Positions 16,556 through 62,386 of a stretch of 64,000 nucleotides of DNA are shown piece by piece; the stretch's first letter is position 1; each line of letters opens with the position of its first letter. The stretch spans positions 6,972 to 70,971 of the forward strand of contig JAGGSN010000187.1 of NCBI GenBank assembly GCA_021159005.1, in the 5' to 3' direction. The DNA comes from Candidatus Zixiibacteriota bacterium (GTDB lineage Bacteria; Zixibacteria; MSB-5A5; UBA10806; 4484-95). The position numbers were made by a program, and so were the translations under genes. Below the pieces are notes generated by a model that ran no database searches, was not told the origin of the DNA, and saw only the letters and a list, made by a program, of their open reading frames with translations.

Positions 16556-16600
16556 GAGGGCGTATGCAATACGAGGGCGTATGCAATACGCCCCTACGCG
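16556..16600. repeat. family-B hairpin repeat (GAGGGCGTATGCAATACGCCCCTACGCG), 1.5 tandem copies
   Basis: GGGCGTAT-gca-ATACGCCC perfect 8-bp stem. Confidence 0.75.
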
Positions 16601-16612
16601 AACGGTGTTTCA

Positions 16613-16667
16613 GTGGCTGGTGTACGTCCTCCTTTATAGTGGCTGGTGTACGTCCTCGTGCACCAAC
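16613..16667. repeat. family-A repeats: truncated copy then full copy
   Basis: ggctggtgtacgtcctcc…ggctggtgtacgtcctcgtgcaccaac followed by caataagtt as at 28039. Confidence 0.75.
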
Positions 16668-16676
16668 AATAAGTTC

Positions 16677-16746
16677 AGGGCGTATGCAATACGCCTCTAC
16701 GCGCAACGGCATTTCAGTGGTTGGTGTATGTTCTTGTGCACCAACT
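16677..16746. repeat. composite B + A unit (B 16677-16704, A-variant 16718-16746)
   Basis: same B-spacer-cagtgg-A arrangement as 16574-16667 and 27970-28038. Confidence 0.7.
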
Positions 16747-23168: not shown

Positions 23169-23857
23169 AATTCGGCGTGGTTATATTCCCGGGTTCCAAT
23201 TGCGATTATGATTCGTATCAGGCGGTTAAATCAACCGGCATCGGCGAGGTGCAATATCTTTGGCATGCCGATAAATCGCTTGATGGTGTTGATGTGGTGA
23301 TCCTTCCCGGCGGCTTTTCATACGGCGATTACCTTCGTTCGGGAGCTATTGCGCGCTTTTCGCCGATTATGAAATCGGTAATCGATTTCGCCAATAATGG
23401 CGGCGCAGTAATAGGTATTTGCAACGGTTTCCAAGTGCTTTTGGAGGCGGGATTACTTCCTGGGGCTATGCGTAAAAATTTGGGAATGAGGTTTGTCTGT
23501 CAGGATGTTTACCTGAATGTTGCCAACCGCGATACGAGATTTACTAAAAACTGCCCGGACGAGAAGCTTCTCAAAATCCCCATCGCTCATGCTGAGGGGA
23601 ATTATTTTGCCGATGAAGATACTATAAATGAACTTAATGAAACTAATCGCATTTTATTCAGGTATTGTAATAAGGATGGCGAAATTACCGAAGAGGCCAA
23701 TCCTAATGGGGCTCAGCAAAATATCGCCGGAATTATCAATAAGGAGGGCAATGTGCTGGGCATGATGCCTCATCCGGAAAGAGCTTGTGATATGCTATTA
23801 GGTTCGCAGGATGGACGGTTTATTTTCGAATCAGTTGCAGGAGAGCAGGATAAATGA
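23165..23857 (+). CDS. purQ: phosphoribosylformylglycinamidine synthase glutaminase subunit PurQ
   Basis: [19 protein letters not shown] catalytic Cys, HPE near C-terminus. Confidence 0.9.
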
Positions 23858-24120
23858 AAAAGAGGGAAGTGGTGTTTTTGACTGTCGCCTTAGTGTTAGG
23901 CGCTGTTATTGGCGGACTGTTAGGCGAACTAATCGGCTCTTTTCTGCCGGATGGAGCGGTTAAAACGCTGTTTATTGAATCGATTGAGATAGGCTTCAAG
24001 ACGTTTACTGTGGAACTTTATGCTCTCAGTTTTACGCTTGGATTAATGGTAAAAATAAATTTTGTTTCTGTCTTGATGATTATTTTTGTTATTGTATATT
24101 TCAGATGGTGGTATATTTAG
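23854..24120 (+). CDS. DUF4321-like small membrane protein
   Basis: 88 aa, two TM helices, [13 protein letters not shown] motif. Confidence 0.55.
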
Positions 24121-24131
24121 AGAAGCGTTGT

Positions 24132-24192
24132 TGTCAGAAGTAACTTTTGACAACACAATAAAAAAGGCGGTTGTCAGAAGTAACTTTTGACC
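24132..24192 (+). promoter_or_regulatory. tandem operator-like palindromes TGTCAGAAGTAACTTTTGACA (two copies, 40-bp period) upstream of tatA
   Basis: read directly; TGTCA-N11-TGACA inverted repeat twice; second copy overlaps a TTGACC -35-like hexamer. Confidence 0.4.
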
Positions 24193-24210
24193 GTACGTAA
24201 GATATGAGAG

Positions 24211-24453
24211 GTGAATATGTTTGATTATATACTGATTGGCACGCCTGGCCCGACAGAACTGATTGTTATTCTATTGTTGGTTCTGGTATTATTCGGCGCC
24301 AAACGAATCCCGGAAATCGCTCAGGGATTAGGCAAAGGAATCCGCGAGTTTAAAAAGTCGATGAGCGACATTCAGGGCGAAATAGAATCCCCCGAAAAGG
24401 AGAAGAAGGCAGACCAACCATCAGAGAAAAAAGAAGACGACAAAAATGGCTGA
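24211..24453 (+). CDS. tatA: twin-arginine translocase TatA/E family subunit
   Basis: MFDYILIGTPGPTELIVILLLVLVLFGAKRIPEIAQGLGKGIREFKKS canonical TatA. Confidence 0.85.
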   Translation: MNMFDYILIGTPGPTELIVILLLVLVLFGAKRIPEIAQGLGKGIREFKKSMSDIQGEIESPEKEKKADQPSEKKEDDKNG

Positions 24454-24904
24454 GAATAATCAACGCCCGATTTTTACTGAAAACGCTATTCAAGCTATAG
24501 CCAAAGTTCTCAACAACGCCGAAGTCTCAAGCCTTCAGGACCACTGGCGAATCAAGGTGGTTAATCCGCAGGAGCATCGGCACCTGTCGATAGATATTTA
24601 TCCCCGGGCGAGTCTATCAAAGAAAAAGAAGGGCGCTTTGGTTTCAGTTTATGCCCTTAACAGCCATTTACAGCTTCATGAGTGCCGCGGTTTTATTATC
24701 TCTGATGAACTTGGCGAGGTTACTTTTATAAGCCATGCCGATAGCACACTCAGCGGTTTGGTTATCGAAAGGGAAGCTGCCTGTTCGCTCTATGCCAATG
24801 CCGACAAAGACCTGCTCTCGGATGATTTCACTCAACTCGGTGTCGAGGTGATGCTATCCGGCGTCGCTCTATCGTTAGCCGAGGAAATAATTGATAATAA
24901 ATAA
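24446..24904 (+). CDS. hypothetical protein, translationally coupled to tatA
   Basis: ATG overlaps tatA stop by 8 nt; 152 aa soluble, no recognisable domain. Confidence 0.45.
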   Translation: MAENNQRPIFTENAIQAIAKVLNNAEVSSLQDHWRIKVVNPQEHRHLSIDIYPRASLSKKKKGALVSVYALNSHLQLHECRGFIISDELGEVTFISHADSTLSGLVIEREAACSLYANADKDLLSDDFTQLGVEVMLSGVALSLAEEIIDNK

Positions 24905-24917
24905 TTAATAATTTTGT

Positions 24918-24949
24918 GGCTGGTGTGCATCACCGTGCGCCAGTTTTTA
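24918..24949 (+). terminator. family-A repeat variant followed by T-run, acting as intrinsic terminator
   Basis: GGCTGGTGTGCATCACCGTGCGCCAG + TTTTTAT 14 nt after the stop codon. Confidence 0.5.
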
Positions 24950-25238
24950 TGATATGCTGTCAGGTGCGGGGACATGACAGCGCTTGAAAATCATTTAAAG
25001 CTATTAATTAATATCACTGAATAGTCAGGAGTCGGAGACTCCTGACCTACTTCCTAAATATATAGTGAGTGCAAGGTAATTTTAAATATCAAATCTCACT
25101 CAGTTATCGCAGGTTGGGTTCTCCACCCCAGGCGGATGAGTGGAGCGAACGAGCGGACGAAGTCCTTTATTCAACCCGACACCTCTCACAACAATATAAT
25201 ATTTTTTCCTTTAGTAAAATCCCTATCATAATCGAAAT

Positions 25239-25269
25239 GTCGGGTTTCTCCCGTTGGTCGGAACCCGAC
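25239..25269. repeat. family-D hairpin repeat (GTCGGGTT…AACCCGAC)
   Basis: gtcgggtttctcccgttggtcggaacccgac; related copies 27812-27857 and 28054-28091; half-sites at 78-90 and 1630-1645. Confidence 0.6.
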
Positions 25270-25299
25270 CTGCTCTACTATAACAGATTGTGTGATAAC

Positions 25300-25413
25300 G
25301 GAAAACAAAAGAAACTCGCACTGACAGCATGTATGAAAAAACTCCTCTTGATAATACGGAGCATGCTAATTAACAAAACAACCTTTAATCCTGAAATAAA
25401 TAGCTTGACTTGA
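25300..25413 (+). pseudogene. IS110-family transposase C-terminal remnant
   Basis: NGKQKKLALTACMKKLLLIIRSMLINKTTFNPEI resembles the conserved C-terminus of IS110/IS1111 transposases; no N-terminal DEDD domain present upstream. Confidence 0.4.
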
Positions 25414-25428
25414 AAGACGGTATCTACA

Positions 25429-25455
25429 AAGCTGGTGTACGTCCTCGTGTAGCTT
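25429..25455. repeat. family-A hairpin repeat, diverged copy, immediately 3' of the IS110 remnant and flanking the GIY-YIG gene
   Basis: aagctggtgtacgtcctcgtgtagctt. Confidence 0.6.
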
Positions 25456-25458
25456 ATG

Positions 25459-25863
25459 CTATTTATGAATATTCCATGATTTCTGAGGCAACGTTGCTAT
25501 TATTGCATTTTCGAGTCCGTTGATCATATCGATTTCCAAACCGCTACTATACTGCCTATTTTCGGATGGTTTCCATGCCAGAATCTTTACCTTTTTATTC
25601 TCTCTAAGAGCTTGTTTAATCAATTCCGCAATCCGTTCATTAGTCCCAGCGCCTATCATTCCTTGGTATCGTCCCATGCGGTCCTTCAAAGTAGTTGTTG
25701 AACTTTGACACGCACCGACATACATGACTTCATCATTAACCAAAAAAGCATAAATAACTCTATCATCTTTGCTTTTATTTAGACTAAAACGTACGCCACT
25801 GCTCAAGTTTTCATCTAATAAACATTCACCAACTTCATTAAATTCAAGTCCTGATATTTCCAT
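25459..25863 (-). CDS. small GIY-YIG-like nuclease family protein
   Basis: RVIYAFLVNDEVMYVGACQSS…R…NERIAE fits GIY-(10)-YVG…R…E pattern; 134 aa. Confidence 0.5.
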   Translation of the reverse strand: MEISGLEFNEVGECLLDENLSSGVRFSLNKSKDDRVIYAFLVNDEVMYVGACQSSTTTLKDRMGRYQGMIGAGTNERIAELIKQALRENKKVKILAWKPSENRQYSSGLEIDMINGLENAIIATLPQKSWNIHK

Positions 25864-25893
25864 AAAACCTCCTGAAAATGGTAGTTATTTTGT

Positions 25894-25920
25894 GGCTGGT
25901 GTACGTCCCCGTGCACCAGC
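25894..25920. repeat. family-A hairpin repeat
   Basis: ggctggtgtacgtccccgtgcaccagc. Confidence 0.75.
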
Positions 25921-26052
25921 TATTTTATCGCCGCGGTGAGTCGAACCGAGGCTGAAAGCCTCGGCTATTATATATCCTAATATATTATATACTTCAAGAT
26001 GGTTCATCTCAGGTGAGCCGTATGACTGTAGGGATGCGGTTGCTCTTGGCAA

Positions 26053-26421
26053 CTACCGTTTCGATTTCTTACTCGATGTGTCCTTCTCGCTGTTTTTCTT
26101 TTCGATTTTTTTAACCTTCACCGGCATTTTCTGCTCAATTTTTGGTTTGGGCTTGGGTGGCGCAACCTTCTTGACAGCCGGCGCTTTGCGTTTCTGATAA
26201 TCATCGTTAATTCCATCGCCGTCTTTGTCGATAAACTTATCTTTCACAGGTAAGGCTGCAGCTTTCGATTTCAGTTTTACAGCCGGCGTTTTCTTATCAA
26301 TCTTCTTTTCGATTTTGGTCGAATCTTTTTTGCTTTTCTTAGACACTTTCTGAATAGCAAAAGCCTCCGCACCGCTCATAGCTATGAACAGCGCCAACGT
26401 CAATATAATTACTTTTTTCAT
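26053..26421 (-). CDS. secreted Lys-rich protein with thrombospondin-type-3-like Ca-binding motif
   Basis: signal peptide MKKVIILTLALFIAMSGAEA; DKDGDGINDD; KKSKK low-complexity; start ATG overlaps upstream gene stop (ATGA). Confidence 0.55.
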   Translation of the reverse strand: MKKVIILTLALFIAMSGAEAFAIQKVSKKSKKDSTKIEKKIDKKTPAVKLKSKAAALPVKDKFIDKDGDGINDDYQKRKAPAVKKVAPPKPKPKIEQKMPVKVKKIEKKNSEKDTSSKKSKR

Positions 26422-27782
26422 TTCCTGCCTCTTTCCTTAGAATATTTCGACCCGGATTTGGAGCTTCCGCTTTTTAATTTGTCGCTGGTTTTAGAACGTA
26501 CAGGTTCGGCTTTTTTAGACTCGTTTTTCTTGATATTGTCTGACTTTTTATTATCTGTTTTTTTTACTGAAGTTTGTCCCGAATTCGGTTTTTTCTGCTT
26601 CTGCTTTTTATTTATAATAATATCTTTATCGTCAGAATTCAAGGATTTACTGCTTTTTTCCCGTTTAATCTGATATTCTCTATCTTTTTGGGGATAATTG
26701 TGAATATTATCCTTTTTGTTTTTTTCTTTAAATATTAATCCGCTATTTTGCTTATTAATCTTTTCCGTGTAGGTTCCATCATTAAAAATCCTATCCGAAT
26801 ACTTTTTCTGCACTCTTGATGGCGGAGTATGAAGCGGCCTGGTATGTTTAACTCGATATTTTTCCGCTTCCCTGACAAAACCGGGATCGTTGCGGTGCTT
26901 CTCCTGTTTAAATCTCCAATTTTTCATATTCGAGCGGCCATAATCGAAATCCCGGAATTTTCGTTTAATCTTGGCATCGACATAATATCGCTGACCTCTT
27001 GTTACATAAACATAATCCTGCCAGCAGGGATAGCCATGATAATAAATCCATACCCAGTGACGGCCAATATATATTTCCGGTATAAGAATTGGCGCGATGC
27101 CGAAATAACAGCCGTCAATCCAGATCTCGGCGCCCGGGTAATCACAGCCAATCCAGATACTGCCAATATAATACGGGTCATAACGCCAGTAGCGGTACCA
27201 ACTGTGATGCCGGTAGCGGTTATCGATAAAAAACATCGTCGAGGCGGAAATATAAGACCCATTCCTAACAATTCTATTATTTAGGTCGTTTACGAAAACC
27301 GCCATCTCGCCGCGCATCGTATGAACGAAATCATCATAGTAGCTGTCCCAGTTGCCATACTCAAAATATTCATAACGCATGAATTCGGGAGGGTCAATCC
27401 GGTAGGGGCTGGCAACGGCGTAAATATATTCCTTGCCCTTAGGTCCGGTTACCTCAAGCCGGTAATCATCATAAGCATCGGGGATACGGTAAACCTCTTC
27501 GCCGCGAATAAAACAATCGCTGTTGTAATCGGATGGGAAAAGAAGGCTGACATTGCCGGCTGGATCGATATCATAAATCACCGCATAGCAATCCTCCGAA
27601 GCGCGAAAATAAACAGCCACATCTTCGCCGAAATAATATGTCGCTCCATCGCTTTTATTAACCCAGACATCAATCTCAAGGTTGTCAACCCTGCTGATGC
27701 CGTGTTTCTGGTCGGCGGAGGCGGCAACTGTCATAATTGCGGCCAGCGCTATTACCATTAAATTTCTCAAATGCTTTTTCAT
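26418..27782 (-). CDS. secreted DUF4384/PEGA domain protein with Trp/Tyr-rich region and Lys-rich C-terminal tail
   Basis: signal peptide MKKHLRNLMVIALAAIMTVAASA; PGAEIWIDGCYFGIAP PEGA-like motif; true start at 27782 (the track ORF extends upstream only by reading through repeats). Confidence 0.6.
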   Translation of the reverse strand: MKKHLRNLMVIALAAIMTVAASADQKHGISRVDNLEIDVWVNKSDGATYYFGEDVAVYFRASEDCYAVIYDIDPAGNVSLLFPSDYNSDCFIRGEEVYRIPDAYDDYRLEVTGPKGKEYIYAVASPYRIDPPEFMRYEYFEYGNWDSYYDDFVHTMRGEMAVFVNDLNNRIVRNGSYISASTMFFIDNRYRHHSWYRYWRYDPYYIGSIWIGCDYPGAEIWIDGCYFGIAPILIPEIYIGRHWVWIYYHGYPCWQDYVYVTRGQRYYVDAKIKRKFRDFDYGRSNMKNWRFKQEKHRNDPGFVREAEKYRVKHTRPLHTPPSRVQKKYSDRIFNDGTYTEKINKQNSGLIFKEKNKKDNIHNYPQKDREYQIKREKSSKSLNSDDKDIIINKKQKQKKPNSGQTSVKKTDNKKSDNIKKNESKKAEPVRSKTSDKLKSGSSKSGSKYSKERGRK

Positions 27783-27811
27783 ATCAACCACCTTGTTTAA
27801 TATTATTGTAG

Positions 27812-27857
27812 GTCGGGTTCTCCGCCTAAGGCGGACCGTAGCGGGGAGAAACCCGAC
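27812..27857. repeat. family-D hairpin repeat containing CCGCCTAAGGCGG core
   Basis: ggtcgggttctccgcctaaggcggaccgtagcggggagaaacccgac. Confidence 0.6.
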
Positions 27858-27888
27858 GCCGTTTGCTTTATTATGGTTTGAGGCATGC

Positions 27889-27999
27889 GAGGGCGTATGC
27901 AATACGCCCCTACGCGGAATAGCATGCGAGGGCGTATGCAATACGCCCCTACGCGGAATAATAGCATGCGAGGGCGTATGCAATACGGCCCCTACGCGG
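27889..27999. repeat. three tandem family-B repeats (39-42 bp period), no unique spacers
   Basis: gcatgcgagggcgtatgcaatacgcccctacgcggaata x3. Confidence 0.8.
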
Positions 28000-28011
28000 A
28001 ACAGTAATTGT

Positions 28012-28038
28012 GGCTGGTGTACGTCCTCGTGCACCAGC
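28012..28038. repeat. family-A hairpin repeat
   Basis: ggctggtgtacgtcctcgtgcaccagc then caataagtt. Confidence 0.8.
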
Positions 28039-28053
28039 AATAAGTTATTGTAA

Positions 28054-28091
28054 GTCGGGTTCCGACCCAACGCAGTAGGGGAGAAACCCGA
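28054..28091. repeat. family-D hairpin repeat
   Basis: gtcgggttccgacccaacgcagtaggggagaaacccgat. Confidence 0.55.
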
Positions 28092-28219
28092 TACAACCAC
28101 TTCATTTAACCCGATGCCGCTTGATTTGTTTTCATCTTTCATCATCGCTGCCTTTTTCTACAGCTGGTATCCGCCATTGACGGACACCAACCATATTACC
28201 CTATAAGAAATTATGCCCC

Positions 28220-29047
28220 TTAATTTACATCCAAGTCATTGCCGGCATGTTTCTGCATATCCGGCCTGATTTTCAATTCTCTATTGTCTTCATCAATTTG
28301 ATAAGCCCAGTAAAACTCCATCGCGTCAGGATTATTATCAAAATCGGTTATCCATATTCGGGCGTAATGCCACTCATCGAAATGCCATAGCTTCAGCATG
28401 TACATATGCCCATCAATAGCCTCGACACTGTTAAAATCCGACCAGCCATCATCGGGAGCATAGCTTACATCATCGAAACCATCGGCATAGCCGAAATCCT
28501 GGATGTAATAATCATCATGACGGACATATATATAGAACGAGTTGTTATAATAGCTAAGGTAAATATCGCAATTGGTATAATCATCATACGGAACTCTTTC
28601 GCCCGCATAAAGATCGAAACCGGTATAATCGTAATAACTGTTTTCGTCATAAGCGTATATAACAGCATTAGCCCCTTCCGGGCGAGGTGTATCATAGGTA
28701 TAATCAGACAACTCTGATTCCTGGCCATCCTCGTCAATAGCGGTTACCGCATAGTAATATGTTTCACCATTATCAACAGCGTTATCAATCCAACTGGTAT
28801 AGTTTGATGATACCTCATTCTGAAAATAAAAGGTATTGTCCGGGCCGTTTGTATTGCGGTAAATAGCATATGTTTTGATATCCAGTTCGCCAACCGCATA
28901 CCAGGCAAGATAAATCGCCTCATCGGCGGTAATTGATGTTAAACCTGTCGGCGCGGCGGGTACGGGATCGACATAAGAAGTGTTTTCCTCACAGCCAACT
29001 ATAATCATGGCTACTAATACTATCATAATGCCCATAAGCTTTTTCAC
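28220..29047 (-). CDS. lipoprotein with fibronectin type III-like domain and Asp/Tyr-rich C-terminal region
   Basis: MKKLMGIMIVLVAMIIVGC lipobox; FN3-like PAAPTGL…YYYAVTAID; DY-rich tail. Confidence 0.55.
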   Translation of the reverse strand: MKKLMGIMIVLVAMIIVGCEENTSYVDPVPAAPTGLTSITADEAIYLAWYAVGELDIKTYAIYRNTNGPDNTFYFQNEVSSNYTSWIDNAVDNGETYYYAVTAIDEDGQESELSDYTYDTPRPEGANAVIYAYDENSYYDYTGFDLYAGERVPYDDYTNCDIYLSYYNNSFYIYVRHDDYYIQDFGYADGFDDVSYAPDDGWSDFNSVEAIDGHMYMLKLWHFDEWHYARIWITDFDNNPDAMEFYWAYQIDEDNRELKIRPDMQKHAGNDLDVN

Positions 29048-29264
29048 TGAAACCTCCTGTTGTTATCGTCTGATAATTAATTAATCAATAATCATGCCAA
29101 AATCGCTAATTCTGTAACATGCAGTCTTTCAGGGAGATATGGTTTTACGTAAAAATGTCGGTTGCTGTTATGCACAATATTTGTTCGTTTGGCAACTATA
29201 GTTGTGCATGGCTATTATTCACATTGCAGGGAAATCCGAGCCGCCTAAACATTTGATTCGGGGT

Positions 29265-29304
29265 TGTGTCAGTTTGCAGTCCGCCTAAGGCGGATGAACT
29301 GACA
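29265..29304. repeat. family-C long hairpin repeat copy 3
   Basis: tgtgtcagtttgcagtccgcctaaggcggatgaactgacaca. Confidence 0.7.
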
Positions 29305-29643: not shown

Positions 29644-29716
<73 letters not shown>

Positions 29717-29807: not shown

Positions 29808-31016
29808 ATGGCCAAGGAGAAATTTGAGCGAACGAAACCGCATGTGAATGTAGGTACGATAGGTCATGTTGATCATGGCAAGACTACATTAACGGCGGCG
29901 ATGACGATGATATTGGGTCGCAAGGGTCAGGCGGCGGTTCGCGATTTTGATTCGATTGACAATGCTCCGGAGGAGCGTGAGCGCGGCATAACGATAGCGA
30001 CGGCGCATGTTGAGTATGAGACCGATAGGCGTCATTATGCTCATGTTGATTGTCCTGGTCACGCCGATTATGTTAAGAACATGATAACGGGTGCGGCCCA
30101 GATGGATGGCGCGATATTGGTAGTTAGCGCGGCGGATGGTCCGATGCCTCAGACGCGCGAGCATATATTATTGGCACGTCAGGTAGGAGTTCCTTACATA
30201 GTTGTATTCATGAACAAGATAGACCAGGTAGATGATCCTGAGTTATTAGACTTGGTGGAGCTTGAGGTACGGGATTTATTGAGTCAGTATCAATTTCCGG
30301 GTGATGACATTCCGATAATTCGTGGTTCGGCATTAGAGGCTATGAATCGCGGCGCTGATGAGAGCGTACCTTATGATGATCCTGCTTTTAAGTGTGTGCA
30401 TGAGTTGATGGATGCGGTAGACAGCTATATACCGGAGCCGAAGCGTGATATTGACAAGCCGTTTTTATTGCCGATAGAGGATGTATTTTCGATAACGGGT
30501 CGAGGTACGGTAGGAACGGGTCGAGTTGAGCGCGGCAAGATAAAGACCGGTGATCCTGTTGAGCGTGTTGGTGTTAGGGAGACTCGCAAGACGGTAGTAA
30601 CGGGTGTTGAGATGTTTCGGAAGATATTGGATTATGCTCAGGCGGGCGATAATGTAGGTTTGTTATTGCGCGGAGTAGATAAGAATGATCTTGAGCGCGG
30701 CATGGTTTTGGCGGCGCCTGGCAGTATTAAGCCGCACAAGAAGTTTAAGGGAGAGGTATACATTTTGACGAAGGAAGAGGGTGGTCGTCACACGCCGTTT
30801 TTCAATGGTTATCGTCCGCAGTTTTATTTTCGGACGACGGATGTAACAGGTACGGTGAAGCTTCCGGAAGGTGTTGAGATGGTAATGCCTGGTGATAATG
30901 TAACAGTAGAAGGCGAGTTAATAACGCCGATAGCGATGGAGAAAGAGCTTCGTTTTGCTATCCGTGAAGGCGGCCGCACCGTAGGCGCCGGCGTTATTAG
31001 CGAAATAATAGAGTAA
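29808..31016 (+). CDS. tuf: elongation factor Tu (copy 1, tufB-type position)
   Basis: [25 protein letters not shown]; 402 aa; identical to the copy at 45482. Confidence 0.95.
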
Positions 31017-45481: not shown

Positions 45482-46690
45482 ATGGCCAAGGAGAAATTTG
45501 AGCGAACGAAACCGCATGTGAATGTAGGTACGATAGGTCATGTTGATCATGGCAAGACTACATTAACGGCGGCGATGACGATGATATTGGGTCGCAAGGG
45601 TCAGGCGGCGGTTCGCGATTTTGATTCGATTGACAATGCTCCGGAGGAGCGTGAGCGCGGCATAACGATAGCGACGGCGCATGTTGAGTATGAGACCGAT
45701 AGGCGTCATTATGCTCATGTTGATTGTCCTGGTCACGCCGATTATGTTAAGAACATGATAACGGGTGCGGCCCAGATGGATGGCGCGATATTGGTAGTTA
45801 GCGCGGCGGATGGTCCGATGCCTCAGACGCGCGAGCATATATTATTGGCACGTCAGGTAGGAGTTCCTTACATAGTTGTATTCATGAACAAGATAGACCA
45901 GGTAGATGATCCTGAGTTATTAGACTTGGTGGAGCTTGAGGTACGGGATTTATTGAGTCAGTATCAATTTCCGGGTGATGACATTCCGATAATTCGTGGT
46001 TCGGCATTAGAGGCTATGAATCGCGGCGCTGATGAGAGCGTACCTTATGATGATCCTGCTTTTAAGTGTGTGCATGAGTTGATGGATGCGGTAGACAGCT
46101 ATATACCGGAGCCGAAGCGTGATATTGACAAGCCGTTTTTATTGCCGATAGAGGATGTATTTTCGATAACGGGTCGAGGTACGGTAGGAACGGGTCGAGT
46201 TGAGCGCGGCAAGATAAAGACCGGTGATCCTGTTGAGCGTGTTGGTGTTAGGGAGACTCGCAAGACGGTAGTAACGGGTGTTGAGATGTTTCGGAAGATA
46301 TTGGATTATGCTCAGGCGGGCGATAATGTAGGTTTGTTATTGCGCGGAGTAGATAAGAATGATCTTGAGCGCGGCATGGTTTTGGCGGCGCCTGGCAGTA
46401 TTAAGCCGCACAAGAAGTTTAAGGGAGAGGTATACATTTTGACGAAGGAAGAGGGTGGTCGTCACACGCCGTTTTTCAATGGTTATCGTCCGCAGTTTTA
46501 TTTTCGGACGACGGATGTAACAGGTACGGTGAAGCTTCCGGAAGGTGTTGAGATGGTAATGCCTGGTGATAATGTAACAGTAGAAGGCGAGTTAATAACG
46601 CCGATAGCGATGGAGAAAGAGCTTCGTTTTGCTATCCGTGAAGGCGGCCGCACCGTAGGCGCCGGCGTTATTAGCGAAATAATAGAGTAA
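45482..46690 (+). CDS. tuf: elongation factor Tu (copy 2, tufA-type position)
   Basis: protein identical to copy 1; nucleotide identity extends from ~10 nt upstream of ATG to the stop. Confidence 0.95.
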
Positions 46691-62328: not shown

Positions 62329-62386
62329 ACTGGTGTACGTCCTCGTGCAAAAGCGTCGCGGCTGGTGTACGTCCTCGTGCACCGGC
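62329..62386. repeat. two family-A hairpin repeats (truncated + full) adjacent to prfB 3' end
   Basis: gactggtgtacgtcctcgtgcaa … ggctggtgtacgtcctcgtgcaccggc. Confidence 0.75.

Follow-up and report, generated by a model that had tools for sequence, protein, structure and literature searches.

A putative sigma-54-dependent three-gene envelope operon of Zixibacteria at an unusual genomic position

We describe a group of three genes in a 64,000-nt stretch of DNA from a Candidatus Zixiibacteriota bacterium (GenBank assembly GCA_021159005.1, contig JAGGSN010000187.1, positions 6,972–70,971), hereafter called the window, whose positions serve as coordinates throughout. The list of open reading frames (ORFs) places three successive minus-strand ORFs at 26053–29047, encoding an acidic lipoprotein (P1), a DUF4384–PEGA protein (P2) and a small Lys-rich protein (P3). 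We propose, with a probability of roughly 0.6, that P1–P2–P3 represents a previously undescribed three-gene envelope operon occurring throughout Zixibacteria and neighbouring lineages. The copy in the window is probably a relocated one, having kept the enhancer and promoter of a conserved sigma-54 envelope operon while being split from the kinase and activator genes usually found beside it. Literature searches on DUF4384, on PEGA combined with periplasm or sigma-54, and on sigma-54 in Zixibacteria returned no account of such a module. The initial annotation of the window had recognized an operon-like block of three exported proteins, and the minus-strand ORFs, export signals and stated domains hold; an envelope or surface role, as it suggested, is reasonable.

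The conserved module and its products

A scan of one genome per species, with about 40 species-level Zixibacteria genomes, recovered 42 loci (L-numbers denote these orthologous loci or contigs). The order P1–P2–P3 is the same in all loci with enough sequence. Where phmmer failed to detect P3, in deep-branching loci, searching by motif identified a small, secreted and Lys-rich product encoded right after P2 in every case, with the pattern D-x-[FY]-x-D-x-[DN]-x-[DN]-G-[IV]-[DN]-D. P1 and P2 abut or overlap in many species, and the overlap of the P2 stop with the P3 start (ATGA, 26418–26421), correctly reported at the outset, is kept in nearly all orthologous loci, which implies translational coupling. 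In two WOR-3-like loci (L050 and L066), P1 is accompanied by a W/Y/C/H-rich protein of 310 aa that has a basic tail, by a DUF4384–PEGA protein of 205 aa and by a small protein like P3; in L069 and L070 a sigma-54 regulator is followed by P1, a DUF4384 protein and P3. P1 homologues alone occur in Ignavibacteria, Bacteroidota and Poribacteria.

Comparison of the window with its closest relative, L049 (79–87% amino acid identity), gives a ratio of nonsynonymous to synonymous substitution rates (dN/dS) of 0.14 for P1 and 0.13 for P2; both genes are therefore maintained by selection. Among the 88 close homologues of P2, all named ones come from Zixibacteria, and its identity to other Zixibacteria declines stepwise (87, 64, 59 ... 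27%), a gradual fall that matches the expectation for vertical descent.

P1 (28220–29047, minus strand; 275 aa) begins with a GTG codon preceded by a Shine-Dalgarno sequence AGGAGG (29053–29058). Its signal peptide ends in a predicted lipobox, MKKLMGIMIVLVAMIIVG-C19 (...IIVG before C19), fitting the pattern [LVI][ASTVI][GAS]C, and the lipobox Cys is invariant across the 41 homologues of the family alignment. An AlphaFold model built from this 41-sequence alignment is confident (predicted local distance difference test, pLDDT, 88.5) and contains a predicted seven-stranded FN3-type beta-sandwich at aa ~30–120 (model aa ~34–119), followed by a second, larger predicted beta-sandwich at aa ~121–256 (model aa ~124–250) that has no Pfam family. 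The earlier designation of P1 as an FN3 lipoprotein survives in part: the lipobox is present and the FN3 domain is supported by predicted structure and profile search, but the Pfam fn3 model (PF00041) has no match in window P1 and stays below threshold in 5 of 41 homologues (best E 3.7e-4). Nothing in Pfam or NCBIfam exceeds threshold in window P1. For the C-terminal domain, HmuY (PF14064) does not match the window protein and is sub-threshold in 3/41 homologues (17.7 vs. 27 bits), and there is no sequence match in the PDB even at E ≤ 10; in Foldseek searches, tandem FN3 pairs are the only structures to which whole P1 aligns. Among 1.84 billion representative proteins scanned, 227 clusters contain the C-terminal domain, which invariably ends a protein of 260–360 aa; the architecture is therefore fixed.

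Mature P1 carries a net charge of −41 (pI 4.05), with 35 Asp, 17 Glu and 33 Tyr in 256 residues. The residues after the lipidated Cys are acidic as well, reading C-E-E in the window protein; of the 41 homologues, 61% have D/E at +2 and 46% have it at +3. This resembles the surface-exposed lipoproteins of Bacteroidetes, whose acidic lipoprotein export signal has its centre at +3 to +5 and comes after a K, Q or S (PMC5080379), and P1 likewise comes from a bacterium of the Fibrobacterota–Chlorobiota–Bacteroidota (FCB) group. However, that signal has been experimentally defined in Bacteroidetes only, and P1 is acidic throughout, so the enrichment is modest.

P2 (26418–27782, minus strand) is listed as a 575-aa ORF, which is over-extended through repeats. 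All 29 aligned homologues begin at the equivalent of the ATG at 27782 with a signal peptide (MKKHLRNLMVIALAAIMTVAASA, cleaved between ASA and DQ), and because of this shared start the protein is taken as 454 aa. Both domains named by the initial annotation exceed the Pfam gathering thresholds: DUF4384 (PF14326) at aa 48–126 (nt 27405–27641; E 8e-23; 80.8 bits vs. a cut-off of 27) and PEGA (PF08308) at aa 207–274 (nt 26961–27164; 33.4 bits vs. 20.8), the latter match including PGAEIWIDGCYFGIAP. The W/Y-rich segment (aa 186–300, also rich in Arg) and the K-rich tail (aa 301–454; disordered, polycationic, net +26) are present too, as noted earlier. A Foldseek search of the P2 model against the PDB produced only generic Ig-like matches (E > 0.001). 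The last residues of the tail, [KR]-[RK]-G-[RK]-[KR] (26418–26440), are conserved and the remainder of it is not. Their codons, GAAAGAGGCAGGAAATGA, contain the Shine-Dalgarno sequence and start of P3, and the conservation may reflect this embedded ribosome-binding site.

P3 (26053–26421, minus strand; 122 aa) has a cleavable signal peptide (AFA before IQ), is Lys-rich with a net charge of +22 and carries DKDGDGINDD, a single DxDxDG-type motif (D61–D73, nt 26203–26241). In a 23-sequence alignment this is the only conserved block of the family, with the pattern D-x-F-I-D-x-[DN]-x-D-G-[IL]-[ND]-D. The earlier reading of P3 as a Lys-rich TSP3-motif protein is right about the Lys content and the motif, but not about the domain: TSP_3 has no match in window P3 or in any of the 23 family members at E ≤ 1. 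Hidden Markov models (HMMs) of EF-hand, dockerin and other Ca-binding families also found no match among these 23 members, and Pfam and NCBIfam gave nothing significant for window P3. The stretch D-K-D-G-D-G-I-N-D fits the DxDxDGxxD pattern of TSP type-3/DxDxDG calcium loops; unlike TSP type-3 proteins, however, P3 holds a single copy, and around the motif only D-x-F at −4 to −2 is conserved.

In the window, P1 and P2 are separated by a 437-nt spacer (27783–28219), filled with repeats resembling repetitive extragenic palindromic (REP) elements. The spacer is strongly structured (fold z = −5.15); its hairpins lack a U-tract, and no minus-strand terminator was called in it. Six Zixibacteria loci carry a fourth gene in a P1–P2 interval of about 400 nt, coding for a small CxxCH lipoprotein with a conserved Y-C-Y-D-C-H...W...C motif and a basic tail (L009 7581–7979 and L015 4369–4731; also L010, L017, L022 and L025). 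The 310-aa protein of the WOR-3-like loci (L050 8785–9717, L066 6785–7726) is an extremely Trp/Tyr-rich version sharing the C-x-x-C-H...W...C core, and CxxCH is a possible haem-c or metal site. No trace of the fourth gene is found in the window, where the REP-filled spacer occupies its place.

Predicted promoter, enhancer and regulators

The predicted regulation of the operon by sigma-54 and an enhancer is well supported. The window contains a predicted −24/−12 type promoter before P1 (TGGCATGATTATTGAT, 29084–29099, minus strand), reading TGGCAT-N5-TTGAT. The GG (29097–29098) is present, while the −12 element is TTGA instead of TTGC, i.e., GA vs. GC of the consensus (TGGCAC-N5-TTGCW, 10-nt spacing). 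This is the sole match to TGGCAYN5TTGHW in the 64 kb on both strands. A relaxed motif, [TC]GGCA[CTA]-N5-TTG[ACT]N, lies upstream of P1 in 34 of 36 non-redundant loci, 20–65 nt ahead of the start codon, compared with 0.015 matches per 250 nt in the background, half of the background matches being these sites themselves. Deep clades possess the canonical TGGCAC-N5-TTGCW, and the clade of the window has TTGA or TTGT at −12. The invariant features are GG and TTG at sigma-54 spacing, and no −10 hexamer is invariant.

The distance from the −24 T to an upstream enhancer element, AACAAnnnTTGTGC, is exactly 86 nt in about 20 orthologous loci; one clade has it at 122 nt. A TGCACAA half-site often comes before the element, which in L050, L066 and L069 is a perfect palindrome, GCACAA-N3-TTGTGC. 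The window version (29172–29208, minus strand) combines a distal half-site TGCACAA (29202–29208) with a proximal near-palindrome GAACAA-ATA-TTGTGC (29172–29186). When the 600 nt upstream of P1 are compared between the window and L019, enhancer and promoter are the only aligning blocks. The position is near the usual binding location of enhancer-binding proteins (PMC7057263). Neither the promoter nor the enhancer figures in the initial annotation.

Of the 29 loci whose flanks are long enough, 21 encode a histidine kinase and an NtrC-type sigma-54 activator no more than 8 kb from the module, usually directly upstream and on the same strand. The kinase (~670 aa) has two predicted transmembrane helices around a ~250-aa periplasmic domain, followed by PAS, HisKA and HATPase_c domains, and the regulator (~445 aa) consists of REC, Sigma54_activat and HTH_8 domains, with GAFTGA in 7/7 regulators examined. 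Loci without an adjacent regulator (L006, L013, L029, L030, L035, L038, L039 and L042) keep the promoter, and most of them keep a recognisable enhancer. Across the P1 family, sigma-54 control seems to be general: −24/−12 motifs are also found at the stand-alone P1 genes of one Ignavibacteria and one Poribacteria contig, where the palindromes upstream are different ones. The GAFTGA activator and the upstream activator sequence occur together at orthologous loci, and the window has the dyad only: its 64 kb hold neither a kinase or regulator gene nor a remnant, and therefore we infer that the regulators act in trans.

Genomic position, repeats and neighbouring genes

The block lies, as initially annotated, between tatA (24211–24453) and tRNA-Thr (29644–29716). 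On one side it is flanked by purS-purQ-ORF88-tatA-ORF152, and on the other tRNA-Thr is followed by tuf-rpmG-tRNA-Trp-secE-nusG. The initial annotation took this block for an accessory one, forming a tRNA-linked island. The accessory claim is contradicted by the presence of P1–P2–P3 in every recovered Zixibacteria locus with enough sequence, and the island lacks its usual marks: no integrase is encoded at 24.9–29.6 kb, no repeat of the tRNA-Thr 3′ end occurs in the window at ≤ 3 mismatches, the block is on the 5′ side of the tRNA gene, and its G+C content (0.39–0.48) falls inside the range of the window.

Synteny comparison thus gives a divided answer, the block being conserved and its position lineage-specific. 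Neither tatA nor tuf is found within 8 kb of the module at any other locus. Metagenomic relatives with an ORF152 that is 74–84% identical share the order purS-purQ-ORF88-tatA-ORF152, and downstream of ORF152 they match no part of the window; this is therefore a synteny breakpoint, as opposed to a conserved tatA...tRNA-Thr interval that took up an insertion. As the relatives lose synteny after ORF152, the "empty site" sought between these two genes does not exist. Only the position beside tatA and tRNA-Thr/tuf is lineage-specific, not the module. We consider it probable that the island-like look (opposite strand, tRNA gene, insertion sequence debris, repeats) is here the signature of a relocated conserved operon.

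The junction at 24.9–25.9 kb bears two traces of mobile elements. The last ~40 residues of an ORF at 25069–25413 (plus strand) match the C-terminus of an IS110-type transposase (phrog_2199, E 2.8e-5; NCBIfam IS110, E 0.0096), the rest being missing; the insertion sequence remnant reported earlier is weak yet real. Directly downstream of P3, an intact ORF (25459–25863, minus strand; 134 aa) matches the phage endonuclease family phrog_1111 over nearly its full length (E 4e-9), with no Pfam, NCBIfam or PADLOC match. PADLOC defence models found no matches among the neighbouring ORFs. In L049 (JGI 3300024121 Ga0255385_10917) the endonuclease gene is absent and a PBP-family gene takes its place. There the module also lies by the tatA genes, with P2 breaking off near codon 340 and running directly into the 3′ portion of purQ; the junction (~2163–2168) has no repeat, and ORF88-tatA-ORF152, the PBP gene and an inverted P3 follow. 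This junction is either an inversion corresponding to ~23604–26760 of the window or an assembly chimera.

REP-like palindromic repeats flank the block and fill the P1–P2 spacer, with sites at 16573–16700, 24906–24948, 25431–25449, 25895–25920, 27803–28091, 29280–29297 and 62329–62386. The families include GCTGGTGTACGTCCTCGTGCACCAGC and GAGGGCGTATGCAATACGCCCCTAC, the latter a 39-nt unit occurring three times at 27883–28002. Repeats do bound and punctuate the block, as initially noted, but they are not specific to it, since members of these families are scattered over the window, recurring at 16.6 and 62.3 kb; L049 has them too. The 3′ end of the unit (25882–25964, minus strand) combines a G+C-rich hairpin (25946–25964) with the REP-like palindrome at 25895–25920.

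Several further features of the neighbourhood can be mentioned. ORF152 (24446–24904, plus strand) overlaps the end of tatA by 8 nt, belongs to no family in Pfam, NCBIfam, PHROGs or PADLOC and is found, always after tatA, in 12 metagenomic relatives at 70–93% identity. A 22-nt perfect direct repeat, GTTGTCAGAAGTAACTTTTGAC, is present just upstream of tatA at 24130–24151 and 24170–24191, 40 nt apart, each copy being a near-palindrome (GTCAGAAGT/ACTTTTGAC). The window carries two tuf genes (29808–31016 and 45482–46690) with 100% nucleotide identity over 1209 nt, which stops ≤ 8 nt from the ends of the ORFs. The copy after tRNA-Thr has a tufB-like context, and its counterpart stands after fusA in the str operon; the pair looks like gene conversion of a duplicated tuf. 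In many Zixibacteria the module is followed by genes for a DUF362 protein, a 570-aa TPR protein and a 560-aa Big_5 protein (L004 10576–17473, L006, L010, L015, L016, L018, L019 and L021–L025), a set not found in the window. A very large protein comes after this set in L004 (2765 aa) and L006, where the flank reaches. No sigma-54 motif or enhancer was seen before the DUF362/TPR/Big_5 gene set.

Proposed working, rival readings and known systems

The following chain of events may be proposed for the operon. Transcription would start at the sigma-54 (−24/−12) promoter at 29084–29099, activated by an NtrC-type enhancer-binding regulator (REC, AAA+ with GAFTGA, HTH_8) that would bind a GCACAA-N3-TTGTGC-type site centred ~81 bp upstream of the −24 element. 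The partner kinase, with its two transmembrane helices, ~250-aa periplasmic sensor and PAS-HisKA-HATPase module, presumably phosphorylates this regulator. In the source lineage the operon would have been separated from the kinase/regulator pair and would now sit at the breakpoint between tatA-ORF152 and tRNA-Thr/tuf, controlled in trans. All three products are predicted to be exported, P1 via its lipoprotein signal peptide and P2 and P3 via AxA-type cleaved signal peptides. The acidic lipoprotein P1 (−41) could anchor to the membrane and assemble electrostatically with the P2 tail (+26) and P3 (+22), whose DxDxDG loop may bind Ca2+. Such an assembly would form a protein layer in the envelope or at the surface, induced once the kinase detects a signal from the envelope or from outside the cell.

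The assembly step, in which we have low confidence, draws on charge. P1 is acidic and P2 and P3 are basic in all 24 species with a complete P1 ORF. Across 23 species the charges correlate with r = −0.59 between P1 and P2+P3 and r = 0.85 between P2 and P3, values not corrected for phylogeny. Co-variation of P2 with P3, opposed to P1, is the opposite of what a general shift in proteome pI would be expected to give. The pattern holds and co-varies, and an electrostatic scaffold of lipid-anchored P1 with P2 and P3 is therefore favoured; it hints at an electrostatically assembled envelope complex. We speculate that P1–P2–P3, ancestrally with the CxxCH lipoprotein, could be a new inducible "sense-and-coat" assembly of Zixibacteria, WOR-3 and allied lineages without a characterised counterpart, in which a hyper-acidic FN3 lipoprotein is coated or cross-linked by polycationic, aromatic-rich partners and switched on through sigma-54 by one dedicated periplasm-sensing two-component system; this broader picture is tentative.

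Several points weigh against the proposal of a relocated sigma-54 envelope operon. The promoter is predicted from sequence alone, and its dependence on sigma-54 could be weaker or different given the TTGA/TTGT that the window and its clade have at −12. Neither rpoN nor the kinase/regulator pair was seen for the source genome within the 64–86 kb covered. The REP-filled 437-nt spacer could uncouple P1 from P2–P3 here. The complex model draws on composition and the phylogeny-uncorrected charge correlations alone, and the AlphaFold model of P2 is poor (pLDDT 52.8), being confident in DUF4384 only. Localisation of P1 is ambiguous too: in proteobacteria, Asp at +2 after the lipobox Cys acts in inner-membrane retention, so the acidity at +2/+3 would fit this as well as surface export of the Bacteroidetes type.

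The main rival is a divalent-cation or metal envelope stress module like ZraPSR, in which the kinase would sense a periplasmic cation and P1 and P3 would bind or buffer Ca2+ or metal, joined in the ancestral four-gene form by a metal-binding CxxCH lipoprotein. It would account for the 35 Asp and 17 Glu in the 256 residues of P1, the invariant DxDxDG-type loop of P3, the C-x-x-C-H...C of the fourth gene in six Zixibacteria loci and the WOR-3-like loci, and the placement of a kinase and a sigma-54 regulator beside periplasmic proteins, which parallels ZraSR/ZraP. However, Pfam and NCBIfam detect no metal-binding family, the CxxCH gene can be dispensed with (the window and many other loci lack it), P3 has only a single Ca loop, and there is no similarity to ZraP, Spy or CpxP; we regard this reading as unlikely. 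It is improbable that the three genes do not form one unit here, with P1 alone expressed from the sigma-54 promoter, the REP array blocking read-through and P2–P3 separate or silent. The length and structure of the spacer (437 nt, z = −5.15), weak sigma-70-like matches inside the region and the stand-alone P1 genes with their own sigma-54 promoter in Ignavibacteria and Poribacteria would agree with such a split, but the spacer hairpins have no U-tract and no minus-strand terminator is called there, purifying selection acts on P2, many species have P1 and P2 abutting or overlapping, and the spacers contain no second conserved promoter motif.

Horizontal acquisition of the block as an accessory island of surface or adhesion genes by a tRNA gene, delimited by repeats and an insertion sequence remnant, appears very improbable. 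The block is opposite in strand to almost all neighbouring genes, adjoins tRNA-Thr with the transposase remnant and endonuclease gene next to it, has REP-like repeats around and inside it and occupies a position unique among 40 loci. Yet the module and its orthologous regulatory DNA are conserved across the phylum and beyond, with P2 identity declining gradually from 87 to 27% as under vertical descent; integrase and a tRNA 3′-end att repeat are missing, the block is 5′ of the tRNA gene with unremarkable G+C, and the repeats belong to dispersed families. We give hardly any credence to the motif upstream of P1 being a sigma-70 promoter or another protein-binding site rather than a sigma-54 promoter. 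TTGGCA-16-AATTAT at 29100–29073 is a 9/12 sigma-70-like match, and the −12 GC is degenerate (GA or GT) in the clade of the window; however, it is GG and TTG at sigma-54 spacing that are invariant and not a −10 hexamer, deep clades show perfect TGGCAC-N5-TTGCW, a GAFTGA activator is adjacent in most loci, and an enhancer-like palindrome is fixed 86 nt upstream.

Zixibacteria and WOR-3 are uncultured sediment and groundwater phyla with little-known cell-envelope biology, for which the module offers a testable lead. It is one of the few gene sets there with a complete readable circuit (sensor kinase, sigma-54 activator, enhancer, promoter and three exported products), spans at least two candidate phyla and gives a concrete, testable regulon. 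With the P1 C-terminal domain and P3 it contributes two protein families that no Pfam model covers, and it places the orphan domain DUF4384 in a genomic context for the first time. For annotation, it teaches that an island-looking block can be a relocated core operon. The module is not mechanistically surprising.

Among known systems, P2 agrees with the Pfam DUF4384 and PEGA proteins in exceeding both curated thresholds. The literature names DUF4384 only as an accessory domain of orthocaspases, Ser/Thr kinases and Csx30. Unlike the described DUF4384 and PEGA proteins, which have no known function, P2 adds an aromatic segment, a polycationic tail, a fixed partnership with P1 and P3 and predicted sigma-54 control.

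In layout, the module resembles ZraSR-ZraP of Enterobacteria, where the genes of a membrane kinase, sensing through a periplasmic domain, and of an NtrC-family sigma-54 activator adjoin the envelope protein genes that this pair controls; in both, the kinase/activator pair is found next to genes of exported proteins. However, ZraP is helical and belongs to the Spy/CpxP family, whereas here three predicted beta-rich or disordered proteins are encoded co-directionally, not divergently, and P1, P2 and P3 give no Pfam or NCBIfam match to the ZraP/Spy/CpxP (LTXXQ) family. The layout also resembles PilSR-pilA. With NtrBC/glnAp2-type promoters the operon shares the predicted −24/−12 element and an upstream dyad for a REC-AAA+-HTH_8 activator, and the dyad GCACAA-N3-TTGTGC resembles the enteric NtrC site TGCACCA-N3-TGGTGCA. 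Unlike the cytoplasmic NtrB, the kinase is predicted to be transmembrane with a periplasmic domain, and exported proteins take the place of nitrogen assimilation genes as targets. In its regulatory logic the operon follows the classic NtrC-family two-component systems, and none of the three products is in a characterised family.

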